Positions 23,929 through 37,632 are shown, numbered from the stretch's first letter. The stretch is 64,000 nt of DNA from Escherichia coli (GCF_024502345.1 NZ_JALDNN010000001.1); one strand, 5' to 3'. The notes: generated from the letters alone by a model not told the origin. Made by a program: numbers and translations.

Positions 23929-24564
23929 TTTTCCCTCTGCATACTGTTTTGTCGTTTATGTATGCAGGCATGATAGCAAAAATGGCGAGGATGGCTCTGT
24001 TTGCGCCACGCCGATTTTTCTTAGCCCAGACTGGTGAGCTAAATATCTTTAATAAACAGCAGGCAAATCATCGCAATACCCAACATCCCTATCGCCAGCC
24101 AGAACAACGCATGGTAGCTCCAGATTTCAACCATAATTCCGTCAACAGAGCCGGCGATAATCCAGCCGACGCGTGAAGTATTTGCATATAACGTTGTCGC
24201 AGAGCCTATTTTTTCAGGCATCAAGTCCTGAAAATAAAGCATGCCGATACCACAGAGAATACCAAGGAAGATGGCATTAAGAATTTGCAATTCCAGCTCA
24301 ACCGCCGGAGTCGTCGCCATGAGTACGCTGGCGTAAAAACACATTCCACTCACGATAGCAATGAGCATTAATAGTCGCTTGCCAATACGTTTCATGTAAT
24401 AGCCTGCGATTAACATCATCGGAATTTCCAGACCGGCAGCGATACCAATCATTTCTCCAGCCAGTTTATCGGTTAGATGCAGTTCATCAATAATAAATAG
24501 CGGCATATTTATCATGTAGAGATTATTCGCCGCCCACATCATTGAACAAACCACAAAAAGTAGC

Positions 24565-25785
24565 TGTAGATTCAATCTGTCAATGCAACACCCCTTTCAA
24601 TTATCTCTTTCGGTGTTTTGAACTTCAGTGTCTTTCTCGGTCTGTTGTTTAGCTGAGCAGCAACCAGATCTAGTTCATGTTGAGTATATTGGGCAAGACA
24701 TGTCTTTTTAGGAAAGTACTGCCGAATTAGCCCATTTGTGTTCTCATTTGTTCCCCGCTGCCAAGGACTCTGAGGATCGCAGAAGTAAACTTTAACGCCG
24801 GTGCTGACAGTAAATTCTAGATGTCTGGCCAGTTCCATTCCTCTGTCCCATGTCAGTGATTTTCTGAGTTCTGACGGTAAACTCAGGAATTTGTCGGTAA
24901 GAGCCTGATTTACTGAGACAGAATCTTTGCCCCTGAGTCTAAGGATGATCGTATAACGTGATTTTCGGTCTACAAGTGTGGCTATATGAGAGTTTTTTGT
25001 ACCTGAGACTAAATCGCCCTCCCAATGCCCCAGAGAGCGTCTGTTATCGATATTTCGGGAACGTTCGTGAATTGGTGTTCCGTTCACTATGTTAATCGTA
25101 CCTCTTTCGCCTTTGCGGGTATGACGCCTGCCATGGCGAAGGCTATGCGACCGTCGCAGATGCTGTATATTCAGGTGGTGTAGCGCTTCACGGCTACGAA
25201 AGTACAGCGTTTTATAAATTGTCTCAGGTGATATTCGCAGCGTTTTTTGACGTGGTTTTGTTCGCCTTAACCATCCTGATATTTGCTCTGGAGACCATTT
25301 CATCTCCAGCTTTTCCAGAACAAGCTTTCGCAATGGTAAATTTTGATCCAGTAAGCACGGTTTTGGCCTTTTCGCCATTCTGTTGGCTCGGTTATTAGCA
25401 TCAACAGCTTTGTAATAGCGTCTGCCCCGATTACGCTGAACTTCACGTGAGATCGTCGAAGGACTGCGATTCAGCGCAGTAGCTATCGCACGAATGCTCA
25501 TTTTGGCTGACAAACCAGCTCGTATCTCCTCGCGCTCAGACAGTGTCAGGTGAGCTACAGCCCGCTTACGCTCATGGGGTTTTATGCCGCCAGTATCCCT
25601 TAACATAGTGAAGATCGTTCCGGGTTTTGAACCCAGGATATTCGCTATTTCACTGAAGCCTGTTCCGTTCTTCCATAGTTCAAAAACAGAGGCTTTTTCC
25701 TCTGCTGTAAATGTTCGTCTCATTCAAAAAACCTCCGCAACCCCATGTTTTCACATAACTGTTGCGTTGACCAATTGAATCTACA
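24565..25785 (-). mobile_element. IS30 (1221 bp, complete, with terminal inverted repeats)
   Basis: Ends TGTAGATTCAATCTGTCAATGCAAC (24565) and GCGTTGACCAATTGAATCTACA (25785); flanking GC dinucleotide on both sides. Confidence 0.9.
24572..25723 (-). CDS. insI: IS30 transposase
   Basis: 383-aa ORF; matches the IS30 transposase I remember, with an N-terminal HTH region and a C-terminal DDE domain. Confidence 0.9.
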   Translation of the reverse strand: MRRTFTAEEKASVFELWKNGTGFSEIANILGSKPGTIFTMLRDTGGIKPHERKRAVAHLTLSEREEIRAGLSAKMSIRAIATALNRSPSTISREVQRNRGRRYYKAVDANNRANRMAKRPKPCLLDQNLPLRKLVLEKLEMKWSPEQISGWLRRTKPRQKTLRISPETIYKTLYFRSREALHHLNIQHLRRSHSLRHGRRHTRKGERGTINIVNGTPIHERSRNIDNRRSLGHWEGDLVSGTKNSHIATLVDRKSRYTIILRLRGKDSVSVNQALTDKFLSLPSELRKSLTWDRGMELARHLEFTVSTGVKVYFCDPQSPWQRGTNENTNGLIRQYFPKKTCLAQYTQHELDLVAAQLNNRPRKTLKFKTPKEIIERGVALTD

Positions 25786-26875
25786 GCCGCGTATCTCGCT
25801 TTCTATGGATGGAGGGTAAAATTTCTACGGGTTGGGTAACGACAGGAATATTTCTTTGTATTGATGGCAAAAACAACCAGACTATCAGCCCGCAAACAAC
25901 AAATGCGATGGCAGCGGTGAGATACATCACTTTAAAACTAAATCCCATTGCCAGTTCATAAGCGAGCGGTGGCCCGATAACCCAGGCAAGCGAGATCTGA
26001 GCACGTAAAAATGTACTGAACATGACCGTCTCACGGCCTGTTCTATCGGCGTGTTCACGGGCGAGGGCGAACATTTGCGGGTTTGCGGTGGAAGCAAAAC
26101 TACTCAGAAGTACGCCCGTTGAGAGGAGAATGAAGTAGTTGCGATTCCACGCAAAAAGCGTGCAGGCCAGCACTCCAAATAAGCAACATAGCAGAATCAG
26201 TAATTTACGGTCGCCTTGTTTATCGGAGTGCCTTGCCAGAAATTGACTGACCAGAATTCCCATAATAGCGCTACCGGTGAAGAAAAAACCTACCATTATA
26301 GGACGGGCTTTCAGTTCATCTGCGAGGAATATACTTAGGGTAGGAGTCTGAAGAGCGCCCGCAATACCCGTCAGAAAGGCGACAAGTAAAAATGCCGCGG
26401 CAGTGAGATCAAGTATTTTTGATGGAGTGGTAGCCGTTTTTTGCATTCTTCTGAATCACCGGGCGAAAAAATATAACTGAGTTACAAATAAGTACCAGTC
26501 GAATGAGTATTGTATTAAGAATTTTTGAGTATCGCTGATACAACCAGAAAGCAATGCTAGCGCAATATTATAGGGCCAGCAATTGAGATTATTAGCAAAA
26601 GCATGTTAAGAATTAATTACCGAATTTATATATTAATTATAGTAAGGCAATGAGCTATTTTTGATAGTAAAAATAAAACAAGTTGATTTGATATATTAAA
26701 TGAACAAATTAATCTTGATGGCAGTCTGATTATTGGTGAAGTTTATAGTCAGTTTTTTTCGCCAGCGGTTAAAGAAATAGAATAATCGTATAAAAAAGGG
26801 TGTTCTGGGGCGAGTAAAACAACATCTTCACCTTAATGGCGATACAGTTGGCTGAGAGTCAGCAGGGGGGCAAAT

Positions 26876-27000
26876 CACCTGCAAATAAACACGGCGCATA
26901 CTGGCGTGAATATCGCGGATGCGTTCGAGGACAGAAGAACCGACAGGCGGATTCTTCAGCCGCTCATCGTCCATCACAAAACCTTAGACCAGGTATTCCT
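26876..27000 (-). pseudogene. degenerate internal fragment of a rhuM-family gene
   Basis: About 125 bp align to the intact rhuM-like gene at 27741-27890, with an internal deletion of ~25 bp and several substitutions; no intact ORF. Confidence 0.6.
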
Positions 27001-27067
27001 GAAGCCGATTGAATATTGAGCAGTAGAAAATATCTGGATTGACAGTATTACAAGGGGTTGGAGAACG

Positions 27068-27100
27068 TCAGGAGAGGCATTTTGGCGATCACAGGAGTCG
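27068..27100. repeat. degenerate direct repeat of the selC 3-prime end plus flank (candidate distal att site of the island)
   Basis: TCAGGAGAGGC....TGGCG----ATCACAGGAGTCG compared with TCAGGAGAGGCTAATTGGCGGAAGATCACAGGAGTCG at 35848-35884. Confidence 0.55.
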
Positions 27101-27214
27101 CATTCAGCGGCTTGATCTGTTGAATTTAGTGGTTTTTATCGTGTTGGATTTTTGTTGGTGCCCCCTATTATGCCCCCAAATGATTTTGCTTGTGGTGGTT
27201 ATAGGCATTCAGAG

Positions 27215-28252
27215 CTACTTTTTAGGCTCTGTTTTCCATTGTAGCAAACCGGCGATATCCTTCTCACCTTCGGCTTCTTTTAAGCGCCGTTGTTGTTCAG
27301 CAAACTGACCATACTCCGCCTGCGCTTTTTCATCGGCCATTTTCTTACTGATTTTACCTGCGCCTTGCAAAACCTCACGGTCGTTAAATTGCAGGAACTG
27401 ATCCAGCTTATCCTGCCAGTCGCGTAAAAAGACCTGCTGACGACGACGGGCCTGATCCTCGGCAAAATCCAGCCACATGTTAACTACGCGGTTAAGCTCG
27501 CTGACTTCATCCTGAGTGAGATAATTTTTTGCCACCGTCACGTCACCCTTACGCACCTCTTCACCTTTATAGCTGGTCAGCCCCATATGTGGCTGGCTGG
27601 CGTCAGCACGCAGATGAATGAGTTCAGCGGCGGTATGTCCGGTACAGGCAAAATGTAACTTGTTCTGGATGGTTTGAAAAAACTGCGTGGTTTCTTTCAG
27701 TGATGGTTGATAGTCGGCGGCTAACGCAAAGATCTCTCGCACCCGTAAATAAACCCGACGTTCGCTGGCGCGAATATCGCGGATACGCTCCAGCATCTCA
27801 TCGAAATAGTCGGGCACAGCCGATGAACCCACGGGCGGGTTCTTCAGCCGCTCATCGTCCATCACAAAACCTTTGATCAGGTATTCCTGGAGCGTCTGGG
27901 TTGCCCACTGGCGGAACTGCGTGCCGCGAGGGGAGCGAACGCGGTAGCCGACAGCAAGAATAACAGGCAGGCTGTAGTGAAGCCTGTTGCGGCTTACCTG
28001 ACGGCCACCTTCCTGTTGAACTTGTAAGTAAGACTTACAGGTTGCGTTTTGTTCAAGTTCGCCTTCTTCATAGATCGCTTTAATGTGCTGTGTAACTGCC
28101 TGGGGAGTGATCTGATAAAGGTTTGCGATGGTTGCCTGAGGGAGCCATAGTGTCTCTTGCTCAAAGCGGCATTCAACACGAACTTCACCGTCATCGCTGG
28201 CAAACATAACAAATTCGCCTGCCGGGGATTGGGTTAAGTATTTATCTGTCAT
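27215..28252 (-). CDS. rhuM: RhuM-family protein (virulence-associated, function unknown)
   Basis: 345 aa with the family signature LPVILAVGYRVRSPRGTQFRQWAT. Confidence 0.8.
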   Translation of the reverse strand: MTDKYLTQSPAGEFVMFASDDGEVRVECRFEQETLWLPQATIANLYQITPQAVTQHIKAIYEEGELEQNATCKSYLQVQQEGGRQVSRNRLHYSLPVILAVGYRVRSPRGTQFRQWATQTLQEYLIKGFVMDDERLKNPPVGSSAVPDYFDEMLERIRDIRASERRVYLRVREIFALAADYQPSLKETTQFFQTIQNKLHFACTGHTAAELIHLRADASQPHMGLTSYKGEEVRKGDVTVAKNYLTQDEVSELNRVVNMWLDFAEDQARRRQQVFLRDWQDKLDQFLQFNDREVLQGAGKISKKMADEKAQAEYGQFAEQQRRLKEAEGEKDIAGLLQWKTEPKK

Positions 28253-28339
28253 GCCGTCTCCGCTTATATCTGACTCGCAATGCTGTAATCCGCTTAGTAT
28301 GCCAGAAATTCTTGGTGAAGCTTATTACGCAGATAGCGT

Positions 28340-29284
28340 TTATTTTGCGGGCAGCGCTCCCGGATAATGCTTTGCCACAATGTCATTCATCTTCTCCACC
28401 AGGTCCAGACGCTTAAACGTGATATGCCCGTTGCCTTTCTGAAAGTAGCGAATGGTGAACATATCGTCTTTAAAGACCTGTTGATGCGGGTTATCGCGAA
28501 CAAAATTCATAAATCGGATAGAGACATCATGCCGGTTGTCAGGAATGGTTTTGCCATCCAGCAGGTAAAGCATCCGTTCCAGATCGGCGAGCTGATCGCG
28601 CCGCCAGCCCCAGTTCAGACTGAAGCCCCATCTGTCATGCTTCACCAGATTGTTGACGATAATCTTCTTACCGAAGTAACAGGGATTATTGGTTTTGTAG
28701 TCCCAGCTTAACCCTTTAAATACATTGATAATCCCACGTTCGAAAACATCCTGTTTATTGTGGTGGAGTTGTTCAAAGGTACTTAGGATGTTGGCTTCAC
28801 TGATGGCCGGAAGATCGCCCTCTTCGAGGTTTTTAGCCCACTGGCTGCGGGCTTCGGCATCCATCAAGGTCAACATCCCGGACTTCAGCATGAGATCGCG
28901 CCAGATACTGCGATCGATATTGCAGGTAATCACCGGCATCGCTTTATCGACTGGTTGCATCAGCCAGCAGTCAAAGGAATGGCCCTGTCGCATCGCCCAA
29001 TGCTCCGCCACATCACCACCGATGCTGGAGGTTAGCCGTGAGATATCATCAAGCTTATGGATCAGGATTTCTATCAGGCTCAGCGCAGCATCACGCCCTG
29101 TGACGATGCGTTCTATACTGGTTGAGCAAATTAGCTCATTATGATCGGTTAAAACTTCAGCTTCTGTTTGCATGATATTTTGTCCGTAAAAAGCAAACAC
29201 GCCCGCCGGGAGTGGCAGGCGCATTATGCAATGAGTAAATAAGGAAGACAGATCGGGAATGTAATTCGGGAAGGAGGCTCGCAA
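28340..29284 (-). CDS. hypothetical protein, possibly DUF4942-like as is commonly found downstream of CbtA-family toxins
   Basis: 314-aa ORF directly downstream of the cbtA-like gene; family assignment is from memory only. Confidence 0.4.
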   Translation of the reverse strand: MRASFPNYIPDLSSLFTHCIMRLPLPAGVFAFYGQNIMQTEAEVLTDHNELICSTSIERIVTGRDAALSLIEILIHKLDDISRLTSSIGGDVAEHWAMRQGHSFDCWLMQPVDKAMPVITCNIDRSIWRDLMLKSGMLTLMDAEARSQWAKNLEEGDLPAISEANILSTFEQLHHNKQDVFERGIINVFKGLSWDYKTNNPCYFGKKIIVNNLVKHDRWGFSLNWGWRRDQLADLERMLYLLDGKTIPDNRHDVSIRFMNFVRDNPHQQVFKDDMFTIRYFQKGNGHITFKRLDLVEKMNDIVAKHYPGALPAK

Positions 29285-29287
29285 GAT

Positions 29288-29620
29288 TCAGCGTGTCGAA
29301 AGATTATGGCCTTGTCGTAACAACCCCATTGCCTGTCGCGCCCGCAAAATGTCTACAGCCCGCAGATAAGGCGATTGTTCCTGCCAGCTAAATCCTTTGC
29401 GATCGATGCGAACGAGTTCGTATTTTTCCACCAGAAAGTTCACGGCATCGGCAAGAGTAACGCCTGCGTTGATATGTTCCTGAATGACTGTTTCATCGCA
29501 GAATGGCGTGTCACTCAGGGCCAGGCCATAGTGTTGTGCAAGTAGACGGGTCAGTAACATCTGCCAGACGGCCACAGGCGACGGGCATGGCTTCGCTATG
29601 TGTGCGTCCTCCTTTCGCAT
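29288..29620 (-). CDS. CbtA/YeeV-family type IV toxin homolog, with no cognate antitoxin gene upstream
   Basis: Translation [61 protein letters not shown] resembles CbtA ([31 protein letters not shown]); its 5-prime end overlaps the upstream gene. Confidence 0.65.
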
Positions 29621-30329
29621 TGCGCCCGTTCAGACCACCTTTAATCAGGTTCTCCTGAATGCGCTGATAGGTTGTCCAGAGGTCACCGGACTCATCCTGC
29701 CAGCGACGGGGAGCCAGTAGCTGAGATTCCGTCACCGGCTGATGCTCTTCGCCAAAACGATACGTCAGCGCAGCTTGCGCCAGCGCCGCCTGTGCTGGTG
29801 GAGGTAGCATGAGTGACTGCATGGCATCGCGCTTCTCTTCTACGCGGTCAAATATCCCCAGCACTTCGTAAGCCCCTTCAATGACCTTCTCTACTACGTT
29901 GCCTTTATGCGGGACACGCACCTCCCCGAACGACTCGCCGCAAATCAACCCATTTTGGCAAACAGATCTGAATAAACCCGGCAGCATTTGATATGAACTG
30001 GAGCCGTCATGGCTGTTAAGCAGGATTATTTCTGGCACTTGTTTGCCAGTAATCTGGCCTTCTCGGCGTAGGCGCAGCATGTGTTTGGTGTGCTCACGCT
30101 TGCTCTGGTCCCGCACTCGGGTCTGGCAGGCAAAGAACGGTTGAAAGCCTTCACGCTTCAGGTTATCGAGCAGAGTGATTGTCGGAATGTAGGTATAGCG
30201 GTCACTGCGGGATTCATGTTTGTCTTCGCTGAAGACGCTGGGCACATAGTGCGCCAGCTCCTCGCGGGTTAACGGGCGGTCACGGCGCACAAGATTGGTA
30301 GCACCAAAACGGCTGGCTAAACGGGTCAT
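29511..30329 (-). CDS. DUF932/YfjQ-like protein of CP4-type prophage remnants
   Basis: Starts MTRLASRFG..., as I recall for DUF932 proteins of CP4-57-like elements; its 3-prime end overlaps the cbtA-like ORF by 110 bp. Confidence 0.5.
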
Positions 30330-30399
30330 AGGCGACTCCTTTAAAAATGGGCATAAAAAAGCCACCCCGAAGGATGGCCTGGATTGAAAGGCTGGATTA

Positions 30400-30891
30400 T
30401 TAAGGTGAAACAGAAGGGTGTATCTGCGATGCAGTCTTTTCTGAATCTGGTATCGGCAATGCAGATAGTTCGGCAGGACTAAGCTTTCCTGCGCGGTAAA
30501 GTTGCAGTTTCACCAGAATCGGCGCTTTTTGCGACTGAAGGTAACTCAGGCACCATTCCCGCTTCAGGACTATCCTGACCGGGGCAGGCAAAAGCTCATA
30601 TGCTTTGCTAAAAACGACTTCAACAAAAGCATCATCACTCAGTTTATCCTCGGCAATATTCAACAGACCATTGATGACAATATTTTCCAGTAACAGCCTG
30701 TATTTGTCAGAACCCGTTACCGAAGCTTTAACCGTGTTTTCCGGTAAGTGTTCAGAAGATGTGTCATGATTTTCTGTGTGTGCTTTTCTGCGTGAGAAAT
30801 TCAGCTTTTCTGTAAGGCTACGAAATTTTCCTGTGCTATTTTCAGACATCGTAATTTTATCCTGTGGCCTCCGCGTCTTGCCATCAGGCAA
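30400..30891 (-). CDS. hypothetical protein
   Basis: 163-aa ORF just upstream of and co-oriented with the DUF932 gene; no recognisable motif. Confidence 0.4.
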   Translation of the reverse strand: MPDGKTRRPQDKITMSENSTGKFRSLTEKLNFSRRKAHTENHDTSSEHLPENTVKASVTGSDKYRLLLENIVINGLLNIAEDKLSDDAFVEVVFSKAYELLPAPVRIVLKREWCLSYLQSQKAPILVKLQLYRAGKLSPAELSALPIPDSEKTASQIHPSVSP

Positions 30892-31736
30892 GTACGGCGA
30901 GTTTTTTTATCGCTTTAATCAGGCTAAAGGTGGTCAAACCTGCACCTAGAGCCCTGACCGTGACCGAATGGCTTCGCATCAACGTAACCCCCATTACGCA
31001 CAGGACAAGTTGCCACGTACAATCAGGCCATGGGGGGTCATTACCCGGCATGTCCGTAACCACTTCGCTTTGACTATGCACGGAAAACACCTCTACTTGT
31101 AGCCATTAGGGAGCCACTGGCCCTGTTTGCGAATATCAGTAATAATGCCCCCCTCTTTGACCGAAATGGTACGCCAGCTTGGTTCTTTGCTGGATGCATT
31201 CCCATAGGTATACCCGACAGTCATTGTCAGGTTTTCGCCTGAAGTTGTGGTGAGATCAGCCTCATACTTAGCTTCGGTATTTTGTTTGCGAATAAAACGC
31301 ACGGTGTTGATTGCAGAACAGCGAATACTGCTTTTCGCATATTCAAAGGAATTGTTAGCCATTTGGCATCCGTCGTTTTTAATTTCATCCGTCAGGTTTG
31401 CAGAAACATTAAAGTTCTTAGGTACAGGGGCAAATTTAGCCATGTCGTTTCGCATAGTCGGTGGATCTGTCTGAAGCACAAGATAAACAGGACAATCTGA
31501 TTTGCCTACTTCACACGCTTTTGCCACGTAATCACGTACTGGCCATCCAGCATTACCGAAATATTCCGCACCACTTTCATCTTTGCATTGTGACCAGGTA
31601 GCTTTTTTCCCCATCATAATGCCGTCTACCAGCACACAGGTGACGGCTTTTACAGGCTCACCATCCCACCGGACTGCATCAAAGGGCTGAATGCCTGTAT
31701 GGTTCACGTCAAGCGTGTAGGCCTGTGGATTCCTAG

Positions 31737-32932
<1,196 letters not shown>

Positions 32933-33038
32933 CTAATCAGATAGAACAGTCCCGGATAATATTCGGGACTCATACACTGACATACTGAGTTCTGAATTTA
33001 GTAGCAAGATTACTTATGATTATTTAAGGATAGTAACC

Positions 33039-34004
33039 ATGCCTTTAGATTTAAGTAACACCTTAGTTATTGGCATCAGCGCAACCGCGCTTTTCGACAT
33101 GAGTGAATCCGATCGCATGTTTCGCGAAACCTATGCGACCGATCCTGATAGCGCCATTGAAAAGTATCGCGCCTACATGCTGGAGCACGAAAACCAGCCT
33201 TTACAACCAGGAACAGGCTATCCCTTGGTCAAAGCGCTTTTGGGACTCAACCAGCACCGTCAACCCGATGATAAATCACCGCTGGTTGAAGTTGTCGTGA
33301 TGTCGCGTAACAGCCCTGATACCGGTATCCGTGTCCTAAATACCATTCGCCATGACAAACTCGATATTACACGTTCAGCCTTTACCGCAGGTGAAACTGT
33401 TGCCGATTACTTAGATGCTTTTGATGTGGATCTGTTTTTAACGACCAACGTTGAAGATGCGCAAAAGGTGATTGATTCCCGGTTCTGCGCCGCAGCAATC
33501 CTGAAAGATCCGCCTTCTGACGCATCTGATATCCCCGAAGGGCAAGTGCGCATTGCTTTTGACGGTGATGCAGTGCTTTTCTCTGATGAAAGTGAGTTAG
33601 TTTATAAAACTCAAGGGATGGCCGCTTTTCACGCCCAGGAGGATGCGCAGCAAGATATCCCGATGGCTGAGGGACCTTATGCCACTTTGCTAAAAAAAAT
33701 AGCCAAGCTTCAGGAGCGATTGCCAACACGAGTCGAGTATTCTCCCGTCCGTATTGCGCTGGTGACAGCCCGAAATAGCCCTTCGGAAATGCGCGTCATT
33801 AAAACGCTGAGAAGCTGGGGGGTATATGTCGATGAAGCTTTTTTTCTTGGCGGTGTAGAGAAAACAAAAGTTCTGAAGGCGTTTAAACCGCACATTTTCT
33901 TCGACGACCAGGATGTGCATTTGGTTGCTGCCGCAAAGGTTGTTCCTTCCGGTAAAGTACCTTATGCCAGTAATTCAGAGCTTTTTGAAAACGTAGCATC
34001 ATGA
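33039..34004 (+). CDS. HAD-superfamily phosphatase resembling the bacterial 5-prime-nucleotidase family; cytoplasmic
   Basis: HAD motifs in the C-terminal half (IAFDGDAVLF, LVTARN, FFDDQDVH); no signal peptide; N-terminal ~170 aa is a separate domain. Confidence 0.6.
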   Translation: MPLDLSNTLVIGISATALFDMSESDRMFRETYATDPDSAIEKYRAYMLEHENQPLQPGTGYPLVKALLGLNQHRQPDDKSPLVEVVVMSRNSPDTGIRVLNTIRHDKLDITRSAFTAGETVADYLDAFDVDLFLTTNVEDAQKVIDSRFCAAAILKDPPSDASDIPEGQVRIAFDGDAVLFSDESELVYKTQGMAAFHAQEDAQQDIPMAEGPYATLLKKIAKLQERLPTRVEYSPVRIALVTARNSPSEMRVIKTLRSWGVYVDEAFFLGGVEKTKVLKAFKPHIFFDDQDVHLVAAAKVVPSGKVPYASNSELFENVAS

Positions 34005-34052
34005 AACTTTAAACAAATAGCCATCTTTACATCTAGATGGCTATTTGTTAAT

Positions 34053-35267
34053 TTATGCCGTCTTCCTAAATGCACCCTCTACCACACCCCCGCCTTTCCC
34101 CAGCTCACCAATGTAATCCGCATACCACTGCATCATTTGCCTACGCCCATCAAGATACTGCGCATGGTTATACGTGCCGCGAATCGCATTCTTATCGACA
34201 TGGGCAAGCTGCGTTTCAATCCACGCTGAGTTAAAGCCCTGCTCGTGCAGAATGGTACTCATCGTGTGGCGGAAACCATGTCCCGTCAGCCTGCCTTTAT
34301 ACCCTAATAACTCAATGACCTGATTGATGCTTTCCTTGCTGATCGGCTTGCGAGGATCATTCCTGCCGATAAAGACCAGCGCGTGATGTTTTGATATCGG
34401 CTCAAGTTGCTTGAACAGCGCAATAACCTGTTCTGAGAGCGGCACAATATGGGGCCGTTTCATCTTCATCACTTCTGCCGGGATCTCCCATAGTTTTGTC
34501 TCAAAATCGATATCCTCCCAGCGTGCGAAACGTAGTTCTTGCGTGCGTACACCGGTTAACATAATGATCTGAGTGGCGGTCTTCGTGATAACACTGCCGG
34601 TATAACCCGCCAGATCATTGAGAAAGTGAGGTAGTTCATTGGCAGTAAGGAAAGGAAAATGTACCTTTTTTGGCGTAGCTAAGGCGCTGGCAAGATCGGG
34701 GGCGGGGTTGTAATTCGCTCTGCCGGTAATAATTGCAAAACGGAATACTTCCCCGCAGCGCTGGCGAACTTTACGCATTTTCTCCAGCGCTCCGCGTTTC
34801 TCCATCTTACGTAGCGCTTCCAGTAGTTCCATTGGCTTAATATCAGCAATAGGGCGCTTACCGATGTAGGGGAAGATGTCCTTCTCAAAGGTGTCGATGA
34901 TTTCATCGCGGTAGCGCAATGACCAGCGATCGGCTTTAGTCTGATGCCACTCGCGAGCCACGGCTTCAAACGTGTTCTCTGCATTCAGTTTCTGCGCAAG
35001 TTTCTCGGATTTTTTAGTTTCTCCGGGGTCGCCACCTGCCGCCAGAATCTTCTTCGCCGCATCACGTTTTTCACGGGCGTCTGCCAGAGAAACATCGGGG
35101 TAGACGCCAAAAGCGAGACGCTTCTCTTTACCTGCAACGCGATATTTCATGCGCCAGTAGCGTGAGCCATTGGTTGCTACTTCAACGTACAACCCTCCTG
35201 CATCACCTAAGCGATACGTCTTTTCTCTGGGTTTTAACGCACGCACTTTTGCATCAGTTAATGGCAT
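34053..35267 (-). CDS. P4/CP4-57-type tyrosine integrase
   Basis: 404 aa with an N-terminal arm-binding region (YRLGDAGGLYVEV..YWRMKYR) and catalytic R..HGFRHT..Y residues. Confidence 0.9.
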   Translation of the reverse strand: MPLTDAKVRALKPREKTYRLGDAGGLYVEVATNGSRYWRMKYRVAGKEKRLAFGVYPDVSLADAREKRDAAKKILAAGGDPGETKKSEKLAQKLNAENTFEAVAREWHQTKADRWSLRYRDEIIDTFEKDIFPYIGKRPIADIKPMELLEALRKMEKRGALEKMRKVRQRCGEVFRFAIITGRANYNPAPDLASALATPKKVHFPFLTANELPHFLNDLAGYTGSVITKTATQIIMLTGVRTQELRFARWEDIDFETKLWEIPAEVMKMKRPHIVPLSEQVIALFKQLEPISKHHALVFIGRNDPRKPISKESINQVIELLGYKGRLTGHGFRHTMSTILHEQGFNSAWIETQLAHVDKNAIRGTYNHAQYLDGRRQMMQWYADYIGELGKGGGVVEGAFRKTA

Positions 35268-35706
35268 CGTTGTTTCCTCCTGAAAGCAAGAATGCTTTGA
35301 CAGCCTGGGTTTGTTCGGGTGTCAGGGATAGGGTTTGTTTGGTTGTTTTGATGGTTAAGCCGTAATGCTCTGAGAGGGAAAGTTGAAAGGATTGTTTGGC
35401 CCGTTCCTGGCGACGTTGCTCTCTTTCGTGAGCCTTATCGATTGCAGGATCGTAGCCCTCTTTGATTTTTACTCTGGCTTTATCCCTTAGCACAATGGCT
35501 TCTTTAATCGTGACGTCCGGCCATGCTCCAAATGTGAGGCTTTTCTCCTTCCCCTCTATCCGGTACTTCATCCGCCAGCACTTTGACCCCGTTGGATTCA
35601 CCAACAAAAAGAGCCCTCTGCCGATAGAAAATTTGTAAGGTTTACTACGGGCATCAAGTGACTTTATTATTTGATTATTAATGATTTTTTGTTCTTTTGG
35701 TGGCAT
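35254..35706 (-). pseudogene. N-terminal remnant of a second P4-type integrase
   Basis: Residues ~20-95 are homologous to the N-terminus of the adjacent intact integrase (CWRMKYRIEGKEKSLTFGAWPDV); it then runs out of homology and ends 14 bp inside the next gene. Confidence 0.7.
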
Positions 35707-35862
35707 GTCATTTTACCTCCAATGGTTGGTATGCCCAATTGTGCCCCCAAAGGCGTATTGATACCAGTAGACTCCGGTTGACCTCAGAATACAAGGAAGG
35801 CTTGATATATAAGGGATGAGAAGAGATTTTGTTGACGTCAGAAGAGTTCAGGAGAGGCTAAT

Positions 35863-35957
35863 TGGCGGAAGATCACAGGAGTCGAACCTGCCCGGGACCG
35901 CTGGCGGCCCCAACTGGATTTGAAGTCCAGCCGCCTCACCGGAGACGACGATCTTCC
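35863..35957 (-). tRNA. selC: tRNA-Sec (selenocysteine, 95 nt including CCA)
   Basis: The reverse complement reads GGAAGATCGTCGTCTCCGGTGAGGCGGCTGGACTTCAAATCCAGTTGGGGCCGCCAGCGGTCCCGGGCAGGTTCGACTCCTGTGATCTTCCGCCA. Confidence 0.97.
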
Positions 35958-36249
35958 GCGCCTCGATTGCTACATGGAGGCGGGGCGCATTATAGCTACT
36001 TCCTTGAGTTTCTACATCCCCCAGATCAGTTTTTTCCGCCTAATACACGCAGCGTATTATCACGAAAGCATTATAGTTCATATAAAACCCATATTTTACA
36101 ATGATATATGAGCGGAATTAACGCTACCACGATCACATAAAACAAGAATCATAAATTAATAACCAGATATCGGAATATTCGCTCTCACAGGGATGGTTTA
36201 CAAAATGCGTTATCGGTCTCAGCACCCCTATAGCATCAAGGAAAAGCAG

Positions 36250-37632
36250 ATGAAGAGTGAAGTGTTGTCCGTTAAAGAGAAAATTGGTTATGGCATGGGA
36301 GACGCCGCCAGCCACATTATTTTCGATAACGTAATGTTATATATGATGTTCTTTTATACCGATATTTTTGGCATTCCTGCCGGTTTTGTCGGAACCATGT
36401 TTTTGGTCGCTCGTGCACTGGATGCGATTTCCGATCCTTGCATGGGGTTGTTGGCCGATCGAACGCGCTCTCGCTGGGGTAAATTTCGTCCGTGGGTACT
36501 GTTTGGCGCACTGCCATTCGGGATCGTCTGTGTACTGGCCTATAGCACGCCAGATCTCAGTATGAACGGCAAAATGATCTATGCAGCAATTACTTACACC
36601 CTACTTACCTTACTTTATACCGTCGTCAATATCCCTTACTGCGCATTGGGTGGTGTAATCACCAATGACCCGACTCAGCGTATCTCGCTGCAATCCTGGC
36701 GTTTTGTGCTGGCGACCGCGGGAGGCATGCTTTCTACTGTTCTGATGATGCCACTGGTTAATTTAATTGGCGGTGATAATAAACCACTCGGTTTCCAGGG
36801 CGGTATCGCGGTCCTTTCCGTGGTGGCATTCATGATGCTGGCATTTTGTTTCTTCACCACTAAAGAACGCGTTGAAGCACCACCTACAACAACGTCTATG
36901 CGGGAAGATTTACGTGATATCTGGCAAAACGACCAGTGGCGGATTGTCGGTTTACTAACCATTTTCAATATCCTGGCGGTGTGCGTACGCGGTGGGGCGA
37001 TGATGTATTACGTCACATGGATTTTGGGTACGCCGGAAGTGTTTGTCGCTTTTCTCACCACTTATTGCGTGGGTAACCTGATTGGTTCCGCACTGGCAAA
37101 ACCGCTGACCGACTGGAAATGTAAAGTCACTATCTTCTGGTGGACGAACGCCCTGCTGGCAGTGATTAGCCTCGCAATGTTCTTTGTTCCCATGCAGGCC
37201 AGCATCACTATGTTTGTCTTCATCTTCGTGATTGGTGTGTTGCATCAACTGGTGACACCTATCCAGTGGGTAATGATGTCCGATACCGTCGATTACGGCG
37301 AGTGGTGCAATGGTAAACGCCTGACCGGGATCAGTTTTGCTGGCACGCTGTTTGTGCTCAAACTGGGGTTGGCCTTCGGCGGCGCTCTTATCGGCTGGAT
37401 GCTGGCTTATGGCGGATATGATGCGGCAGAAAAAGCTCAGAACAGCGCCACGATTAGCATCATTATCGCGCTATTCACGATTGTTCCGGCGATCTGTTAT
37501 TTGCTGAGCGCGATTATCGCTAAACGCTACTACTCACTCACGACGCACAATCTGAAAACCGTTATGGAACAGCTGGCTCAGGGCAAACGCCGTTGCCAGC
37601 AACAATTCACCTCTCAAGAAGTGCAGAACTAA
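36250..37632 (+). CDS. yicJ: GPH-family (glycoside-pentoside-hexuronide) cation symporter
   Basis: Start trimmed to MKSEVLSVKEK, giving 460 aa; sits upstream of the xylosidase gene. Confidence 0.9.
   Translation: MKSEVLSVKEKIGYGMGDAASHIIFDNVMLYMMFFYTDIFGIPAGFVGTMFLVARALDAISDPCMGLLADRTRSRWGKFRPWVLFGALPFGIVCVLAYSTPDLSMNGKMIYAAITYTLLTLLYTVVNIPYCALGGVITNDPTQRISLQSWRFVLATAGGMLSTVLMMPLVNLIGGDNKPLGFQGGIAVLSVVAFMMLAFCFFTTKERVEAPPTTTSMREDLRDIWQNDQWRIVGLLTIFNILAVCVRGGAMMYYVTWILGTPEVFVAFLTTYCVGNLIGSALAKPLTDWKCKVTIFWWTNALLAVISLAMFFVPMQASITMFVFIFVIGVLHQLVTPIQWVMMSDTVDYGEWCNGKRLTGISFAGTLFVLKLGLAFGGALIGWMLAYGGYDAAEKAQNSATISIIIALFTIVPAICYLLSAIIAKRYYSLTTHNLKTVMEQLAQGKRRCQQQFTSQEVQN

Follow-up and report, generated by a model that had tools for sequence, protein, structure and literature searches.

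Introduction

Between selC, the selenocysteine tRNA gene, and setC, a stretch of 64,000 nucleotides from Escherichia coli (NZ_JALDNN010000001.1 of GCF_024502345.1; the whole stretch is called the window below) carries a small genomic island with an odd mixture of genes. The question raised by this locus is whether the mixture is a newly assembled combination, as an initial annotation made from the sequence alone had proposed, or what is left of a larger and more ordinary element. Comparison with sequenced relatives makes us highly confident that the island is the eroded fossil of a larger selC island with a P4-type integrase and a CP4-like backbone, reduced by two deletions in a process of ordinary decay.

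Results and Discussion

The island lies between two copies of the selC 3' end

With its 3' end the tRNA gene faces leftwards, into the island, and a direct repeat of that end stands at the far side (Table 1). The 14-mer core of this att repeat, GATCACAGGAGTCG, occurs exactly twice in the 64-kb window, and two matches were obtained in 0 of 100 shuffled sequences. The island proper therefore spans 27101-35847, between the att copies, and the remnant amounts to 8.75 kb. The initial annotation had placed an accessory island at the selC 3' end, and its coordinates turned out to be the exact outer ends of the two repeat copies; the degenerate copy of the selC 3' end with its flank does mark the far boundary (27068-27100 vs 35848-35884). 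The G+C content (49.4% in the island vs 51.4% in the window) is hardly atypical, and an Rfam scan of the window gave no match besides tRNA-Sec.

The proposed empty selC-setC site was found in strain WP7-S17-ESBL-01 (L002), where the 37-bp att stretch is present in a single copy, following a short rhuM fragment just as at window 26876-27005. The island is thus absent from some strains that have an intact empty site. It is not core sequence either, a condition under which its accessory nature would have had to be given up, since only 2 of 5,426 complete E. coli genomes carried the module of 5'-nucleotidase and integrase genes at ≥80% coverage. None of these genomes had a single locus that covered ≥80% of 26000-37000. 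The att duplication and the integrase gene suggest that the element arrived by site-specific integration into the selC 3' end, catalyzed by a tyrosine integrase.

The rhuM fragment at 26876-27005 lies outside the island, beside the degenerate selC copy, and is 78-90% identical to part of the full rhuM gene within the island. The same fragment adjoins selC in unoccupied sites, that of a K-12 derivative included, and occurs in about 4,100 genomes; it is left over from an earlier occupant of the selC site.

Larger sequenced islands show the same genes in the same order

The combination of cargo had been regarded as undescribed. Instead, all segments of the remnant are colinear with the sequenced islands of G3/10 (NZ_CP060075.1, 47.4-75.2 kb), CFSAN051542 (NZ_CP020835.1) and OZ039639.1 (GCA_964045355.1), from which the window is only two deletions apart. 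These islands have the same att repeat and gene order, and share the Arm fragment, integrase, 5'-nucleotidase, RhuM and DUF4942 genes at 99.7-100% identity. They are known as sequenced, automatically annotated records, and our literature search found no paper on this family of selC islands. In G3/10 and CFSAN051542 the island measures about 27.5 kb. Reading from setC, the G3/10-type order is RhuM, DUF4942, CbtA, YeeU, DUF987, RadC, DUF932 and four hypothetical genes, then an HTH/AlpA-like gene, YagK/YfjJ, TerY-P (VWA, phosphatase, kinase) and a type I restriction-modification (R-M) system (M, S, DUF4268, R), and finally a 580-aa P-loop protein, the 5'-nucleotidase, the integrase, the Arm fragment and selC. 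As the full G3/10 island contains only two att cores, it is a single element and not a tandem array. OZ039639.1 carries a TIR-domain gene in place of the TerY-P genes of G3/10, and the parent island of this type comes to about 23.6 kb (the sum of the 8.75-kb remnant, 1,299 bp and 13,535 bp).

OZ039639.1, a record that was reached via an exact match to the 149-aa product of hyp456, is 100% identical to the window over 29597-31736 and 99.95% over 31733-36000, and G3/10 is 99.66% identical over 25785-29598 and 99.95% over 32933-36647. G3/10 was considered as the parent and rejected, as its identity is only 94% over 29597-31732, patchy from about 29998, where OZ039639.1 is 100% identical. Over 29998-31732 the identity to G3/10 varies between 86 and 100% per 200 bp, and strain E2 is patchy in a different pattern; the onset of the G3/10 divergence (~29998) does not coincide with the deletion junction at 29597/29598. 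This patchiness indicates recombination among related CP4-like backbones. Such backbones are also found at other chromosomal sites (E2, L019, L021).

Two deletions separate the remnant from its relatives

The first deletion, of 1,299 bp, took the 5' end of cbtA, the yeeU/cbeA antitoxin gene, DUF987, radC and the 3' end of DUF932, and both sides of its junction are 100% identical to G3/10. The DUF932 remnant now continues out of frame into cbtA, down to 29511, and the exact 272-aa fusion product created by the deletion was found in 34 blocks of public assemblies, metagenome contigs among them. Because the antitoxin gene and the first 10 toxin codons were inside the deleted segment, the toxin remnant has no YeeU/CbeA gene upstream and the type IV CbtA/CbeA toxin-antitoxin pair is broken; the operon promoter is missing as well, and the truncated cbtA is a probable pseudogene. 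The CP4-like backbone thus survives in part, with DUF4942 intact, DUF932 and CbtA truncated, and RadC, DUF987, CbeA, AlpA and YagK/YfjJ deleted, a gene content that demonstrates descent from such a backbone and, as judged from the sequence, only partial membership at present. The names DUF4942, CbtA-like and DUF932 follow the RefSeq/Pfam annotation of genes that are 99-100% identical.

The second deletion abuts the IS5 copy. Its left flank reads CTAG and its right flank CTAA, which means that a target duplication is lacking, and no gene continues across the element, as would be seen after a simple insertion. The initial annotation had described a gene of no known family split by IS5; only the 3' 213 codons of this gene (hyp804) are present, and its 5' part is absent and not found beyond IS5. 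IS5 is bordered by hyp804 on the left and by the end of the 580-aa gene on the right, sequences that are 13.5-18.7 kb apart in the parent islands. Relative to OZ039639.1 the deletion is 13,535 bp, and it took the AlpA-like gene, YagK/YfjJ, the TIR protein and the type I R-M system. The window accordingly differs from its parents by the absence of 1,299 bp (antitoxin, DUF987, RadC) and of about 13.5 kb (AlpA, YagK/YfjJ, TIR/TerY-P, R-M). Its mosaic look results from these losses and not from new acquisitions.

At the right junction of IS5, CTAA is followed by TCAGATAG, at the stop codon of the 580-aa gene. This junction is identical in OZ039639.1, JAPQJT01, CFSAN051542, JBEWRW01 and the window, and it is combined with four different left junctions: within the 580-aa gene (OZ039639.1 and JAPQJT01), just past hsdR (CFSAN051542), within hyp804 (the window) and beyond setC, adjoining yicL (JBEWRW01). 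In three of these four cases the left flank ends with CTAR, the target of IS5. The series is the signature of nested, one-sided IS-adjacent deletions that started from one ancestral insertion. In GCA_040537825.1 (L023, 7661-10966) a still larger deletion starting from the same IS5 has left the order yicL, IS5, 5'-nucleotidase, integrase and selC, with the core gene setC and the remaining island gone.

The deletions were further supported by four gut-metagenome contigs from the European Nucleotide Archive (ENA), which match window 25785-31876 at 99.9-100% identity, including the 1,299-bp junction and the left junction of IS5, and which terminate inside IS5. As both junctions are reproduced in these contigs, the eroded island is a real, circulating form and not an assembly artefact.

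A SIR2 match (PADLOC PDLC04091) for the reading frame at 32767-32988 was rejected, because it is the right end of IS5 that codes for the residues matched (10-55). The PDLC04091 model probably holds an IS5-fused sequence, a likely source of false SIR2 calls beside IS5 copies.

A model of stepwise erosion

We propose that an ancestral island of about 23.6-27.5 kb entered the selC 3' end by site-specific recombination, leaving the 37-bp att duplication, and that it carried variable defence cargo, either a TIR protein or a TerY-P triad, beside a type I R-M system with DUF4268. A deletion at the TA microhomology would then have removed the antitoxin gene and truncated cbtA and DUF932. IS5 would have inserted at CTAA just upstream of the 5'-nucleotidase gene and subsequently have caused a one-sided adjacent deletion of about 13.5 kb, ending at a CTAG target site in hyp804, either by intramolecular transposition or by recombination with a second IS5 copy. 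This second event would have removed the excision regulator together with all recognised defence systems. Given the degenerate left att copy and the loss of any AlpA/Xis-like gene, the remnant is probably locked in place, and the 5'-nucleotidase and RhuM genes, both stand-alone defence candidates, would account for any remaining activity.

The colinearity, both junctions, the nested series of deletions and the list of intact genes can be read directly from the alignments. Other points weigh against the model. No complete public record of the exact remnant was recovered, and as the metagenome contigs end in IS5, the window is the only sequence that shows both IS5 junctions at once. The inability to excise and the status of pseudogene are predictions, and intramolecular IS5 transposition is indistinguishable from recombination between two IS5 copies. 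Finally, rare excision via the imperfect repeat may occur, given an intact integrase that does not differ from the one in the full-length islands. Taken together, the window contains a decayed example of a familiar type of island at an established hotspot, a feature that is real, correctly delimited and ordinary.

Table 1. Features of the selC island remnant (positions in the window).
Feature	Position	Strand	Basis or remark
selC (tRNA-Sec), integration target	35863-35957	minus	ARAGORN; Rfam RF01852, 83.8 bits
Right att repeat, 37 bp	35848-35884		TCAGGAGAGGCTAATTGGCGGAAGATCACAGGAGTCG; 15 bp of downstream flank and 22 nt of selC 3' end
Left att repeat, degenerate, 33 nt	27068-27100		TCAGGAGAGGCATTTTGGCGATCACAGGAGTCG; 3 mismatches and a 4-nt gap against the right copy
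Island-end motif	27157-27180	plus	GGTGCCCCCTATTATGCCCCCAAA; 56 nt inside left att copy
Island-end motif, second copy	35728-35751	plus	GGTATGCCCAATTGTGCCCCCAAA; 96 nt inside right att copy
rhuM, intact	27215-28252	minus	PF13310; PADLOC candidate PDC-S05
DUF4942 gene, intact	28340-29173	minus	277/277 identical to G3/10
cbtA toxin gene without first 10 codons	29288-29597 (ORF 29288-29620)	minus	PF06755 on the 90-aa call
1,299-bp deletion junction	29597/29598		2-nt microhomology TA
DUF932 gene without 3' end	29598-30329 (ORF 29511-30365)	minus	Residues 1-248 of 273 align
hyp456, conserved hypothetical, intact, 149 aa	30400-30849	minus	Helical core, disordered ends
hyp804, 5'-truncated	31093-31736	minus	C-terminal 213 of 267 codons; ORF start 31806 inside IS5
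IS5 (ISKpn26-like), 1,196 bp	31737-32932	plus	Transposase 31805-32785
HAD-type 5'-nucleotidase, intact	33039-34004	plus	PF06189; PADLOC candidate PDC-S08
P4-type tyrosine integrase, intact, 404 aa	34053-35267	minus	NF007246, phrog_1, Pfam
Arm-DNA-binding fragment, 150 aa	35254-35706	minus	NF007246 positions 5-119 only; PF13356 on identical product

Two candidate defence genes survive the erosion

The gene families named in the initial annotation (RhuM, DUF4942, CbtA-like, DUF932, IS5 and HAD nucleotidase) are all present between the repeats. The PADLOC check that it had recommended did return candidate families, PDC-S05 for RhuM and PDC-S08 for the 5'-nucleotidase, and no recognised anti-phage system among the reading frames. 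It is conceivable that the remnant is a minimal defence island held by selection, in which these two genes act as stand-alone anti-phage genes; this would be compatible with erosion of a larger island, and we consider it possible but doubtful.

Several observations speak for such a role. Both genes are intact and identical to their parental counterparts (321 of 321 residues for the nucleotidase and 345 of 345 for RhuM, compared with G3/10), with E-values of 1.8e-134 to PDC-S08 and 1.2e-171 to PDC-S05. An earlier study (PMC3710099) predicted that RhuM is a toxin domain and associated it with R-M loci. The nucleotidase has the features of a HAD 5'-nucleotidase of family PF06189, as its match is practically full length (E 3.9e-120, model positions 1-300 of 302) and the putative catalytic motifs I, II and IV are retained (D175-G-D177-A-V, T243 and D289-D290), motifs I and IV being conserved in 115 of 120 homologues. 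The survival of the two genes can nevertheless be explained without selection. Because the IS5-adjacent deletions are one-sided and leftward, genes to the right of IS5 always survive, and rhuM lies beyond the deletion end point. Moreover, the two PDC families are only candidates, and the usual R-M partner of the nucleotidase is gone. Divergent full-length rhuM genes were found in about 365 genomes.

The nucleotidase is unusually conserved. The exact protein occurs in 790 blocks of public assemblies, proteins with 73-91% identity extend from E. coli to Shewanella, Pseudoalteromonas, Azotobacter and Desulfomicrobium, and the PF06189-type family forms 2,391 clusters at 50% identity. We inspected 18 genomic contexts, two of which, belonging to two of three distant homologues, were on contigs too short to show neighbours. 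All 16 informative contexts, from at least seven genera, were defence-type neighbourhoods. In four of them (Azotobacter, both Pseudoalteromonas loci and Desulfomicrobium) the nucleotidase gene directly follows the last gene of a type I or type III-like R-M system, no more than about 30 bp away and on the same strand. Eleven others have it near type I R-M genes with at least one gene intervening: a SIR2/Dsr1 gene in S43 and TUM18781, the 580-aa gene in G3/10-type islands, IS copies together with gene remnants, which separate hsdR from the nucleotidase, in the CFSAN051542, OZ039639.1, JBJNGX01 and CP047279 types, and variable cargo, including McrBC, in the Shewanella loci. In the remaining context a 45%-identical relative has a pPIWI-RE gene as its neighbour, and an R-M gene is not visible there.

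These neighbourhoods further include GmrSD, a TerY-P-like triad and a RhuM-Fic fusion. The Azotobacter locus (L029, 639-12782) reads type I R-M, 5'-nucleotidase, GmrSD and a VWA/PP2C/kinase triad resembling TerY-P, and in Pseudoalteromonas (L030/L031, 1-7954) a RhuM-Fic fusion is situated between hsdR and hsdM, followed by the 5'-nucleotidase. The cargo mix of the E. coli islands looks like a travelling set whose partners recur in other genera.

Possibly, although the odds do not favour it, the PF06189 5'-nucleotidase is an unrecognised, strongly conserved accessory of R-M systems. If so, it might dephosphorylate (modified) dNMPs released by restriction, or drain nucleotide pools during infection. 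A sequence search of the PDB with the 5'-nucleotidase and RhuM as queries gave nothing at E ≤ 0.01, and we found no account of the PF06189/PDC-S08 nucleotidase as a defence gene in the literature. In the window the R-M partner has been deleted and the nucleotidase left orphaned, which offers a natural 'orphan' for asking whether it acts alone. The recurrence beside R-M systems makes the nucleotidase, and to a lesser degree RhuM, worth studying by phage challenge.

The integrase is intact and the island is probably immobile

Two integrase genes had been reported next to the tRNA. One of them is indeed intact, and the other is only a fragment of 150 aa containing the Arm domain. The 404-aa integrase adjoins selC, is annotated with the Pfam domains Arm-DNA-bind_3, Phage_int_M and Phage_integrase, and retains the HGFR box and the C-terminal tyrosine. 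It matches NF007246 with an E-value of 4.8e-91 and 305 bits, under the curated full-length cut-off of 434, and is identical to the G3/10 protein in 404 of 404 residues. Related integrase genes with 81-87% DNA identity are present in about 690 genomes, including O157:H7 and Nissle 1917. The Arm fragment is 41% identical (BLASTP) to the arm domain of the full integrase, overlaps the start of that gene by 14 nt, is identical to G3/10 in 150 of 150 residues and is missing from the S43 variant of the island; it is the remnant of an earlier, different integrase.

An intact integrase with its catalytic residues could mean that the island is a slimmed-down but still mobile element, such as an integrative mobilisable element or a satellite. 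In line with this, a 24-nt motif, GGTRYSCCCHATTRTGCCCCCAAA, is present exactly twice in the 64 kb, on the same strand and each time just inside an island end. Two matches were seen in 0 of 100 shuffled sequences, the motif is also found at both ends of the G3/10 island, and it may be an arm-type integrase binding site. Set against this are the 3 mismatches and 4-nt gap of the left att copy, the deletion of the AlpA-like gene and YagK/YfjJ, and the absence of replication, transfer or capsid-hijacking genes among the PHROGs matches. These matches comprised the integrase, DUF932, a DUF4942/methylase-like family and one weak match to a family of unknown function, the latter for the truncated CbtA only. 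With neither an intact att pair nor a directionality factor in the sequence, the island probably is no longer able to excise, and we find continued mobility very unlikely.

The unassigned reading frames belong to the island backbone

New function, if present, had been expected in the unassigned reading frames of an independently assembled mosaic. Two frames, hyp456 and hyp804, are without family assignment, having no match in Pfam, NCBIfam, PADLOC or PHROGs, and the arrangement as a whole is found in no complete E. coli genome. Both are nevertheless conserved backbone genes of the island family and give no specific sign of new function. The exact hyp456 protein, small, helical and without an informative match, recurs within full-length islands in 364 blocks of public assemblies, and the matches found were in Enterobacterales only. 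In the window hyp804 lacks its first 54 residues and with them the signal peptide, and this truncated copy would be a pseudogene. A full-length homologue (L005, 16981-17784) has 267 aa, a signal peptide and six invariant cysteines, and a tandem, two-domain cystatin/PepSY-like fold is weakly predicted, so the complete protein may be a secreted, inhibitor-like one. Moreover, every segment of the remnant has a colinear counterpart, at 99.7-100% identity, in larger sequenced islands, and the breakpoints are those of a microhomology deletion and an IS5-adjacent deletion. A novel mosaic is therefore extremely improbable. The notion that the junctions are assembly artefacts, for example a collapse across repeats, is almost certainly wrong. 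Multicopy IS5 does commonly break or misjoin assemblies, but the 1,299-bp and left IS5 junctions recur in four independent metagenome assemblies and the right IS5 junction in several complete genomes.

Outside the island, setC is split by an IS30 copy of 1,221 bp (24565-25784; transposase 24572-25723, minus strand) into parts at 24039-24575 and 25781-26446. The metagenome contigs with the eroded island have an intact setC of 394 aa, and the IS30 insertion is therefore private to the strain of the window.

Comparison with known systems

The classical selC islands are LEE, SHI-2, PAI-I536 and SPI-3 of Salmonella, from which the name rhuM comes. The remnant has the same tRNA target, but the reading frames of the window include no type III secretion, aerobactin or mgtCB genes. 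In E. coli K-12, the elements CP4-44, CP4-57 and CP4-6 combine a tRNA-associated integrase of P4 type with a backbone of DUF932, RadC, DUF987, YeeU/CbeA, CbtA and DUF4942 with AlpA and YagK/YfjJ. The likeness to these elements is one of general gene content and of the annotation of relatives, and they differ from the window in having another tRNA target and in that the backbone of the window is broken. P4-like satellites are characterized by a primase-helicase and by capsid-hijacking genes of the Psu/Sid/Delta type, neither of which appeared among the PHROGs matches; a cos site was not searched for.

With IS-mediated adjacent deletion the window shares a fixed IS end, another end that varies between strains, and the lack of a target duplication. 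There is nothing unusual in this case, which follows the textbook pattern and provides a natural example of how nested IS5-adjacent deletions strip an island of its R-M and anti-phage cargo and spare the integrase-proximal genes. It also serves as a warning that eroded islands are easily misread as novel combinations of cargo.

The interval setC-yicJ with tRNA_Opal_TCA is hotspot #1 for defence islands in E. coli; a survey (Hochhauser et al. 2023, PMC10121019 supplementary file 2) detected it in 905 genomes, 228 of which had it occupied. The island occupies this same chromosomal site, where its parents hold defence systems and the remnant in the window has only the two PADLOC candidate genes. 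For new biology this matters little; the odd mixture of genes becomes a well-documented case of how an island decays at the busiest of the E. coli sites for defence islands.

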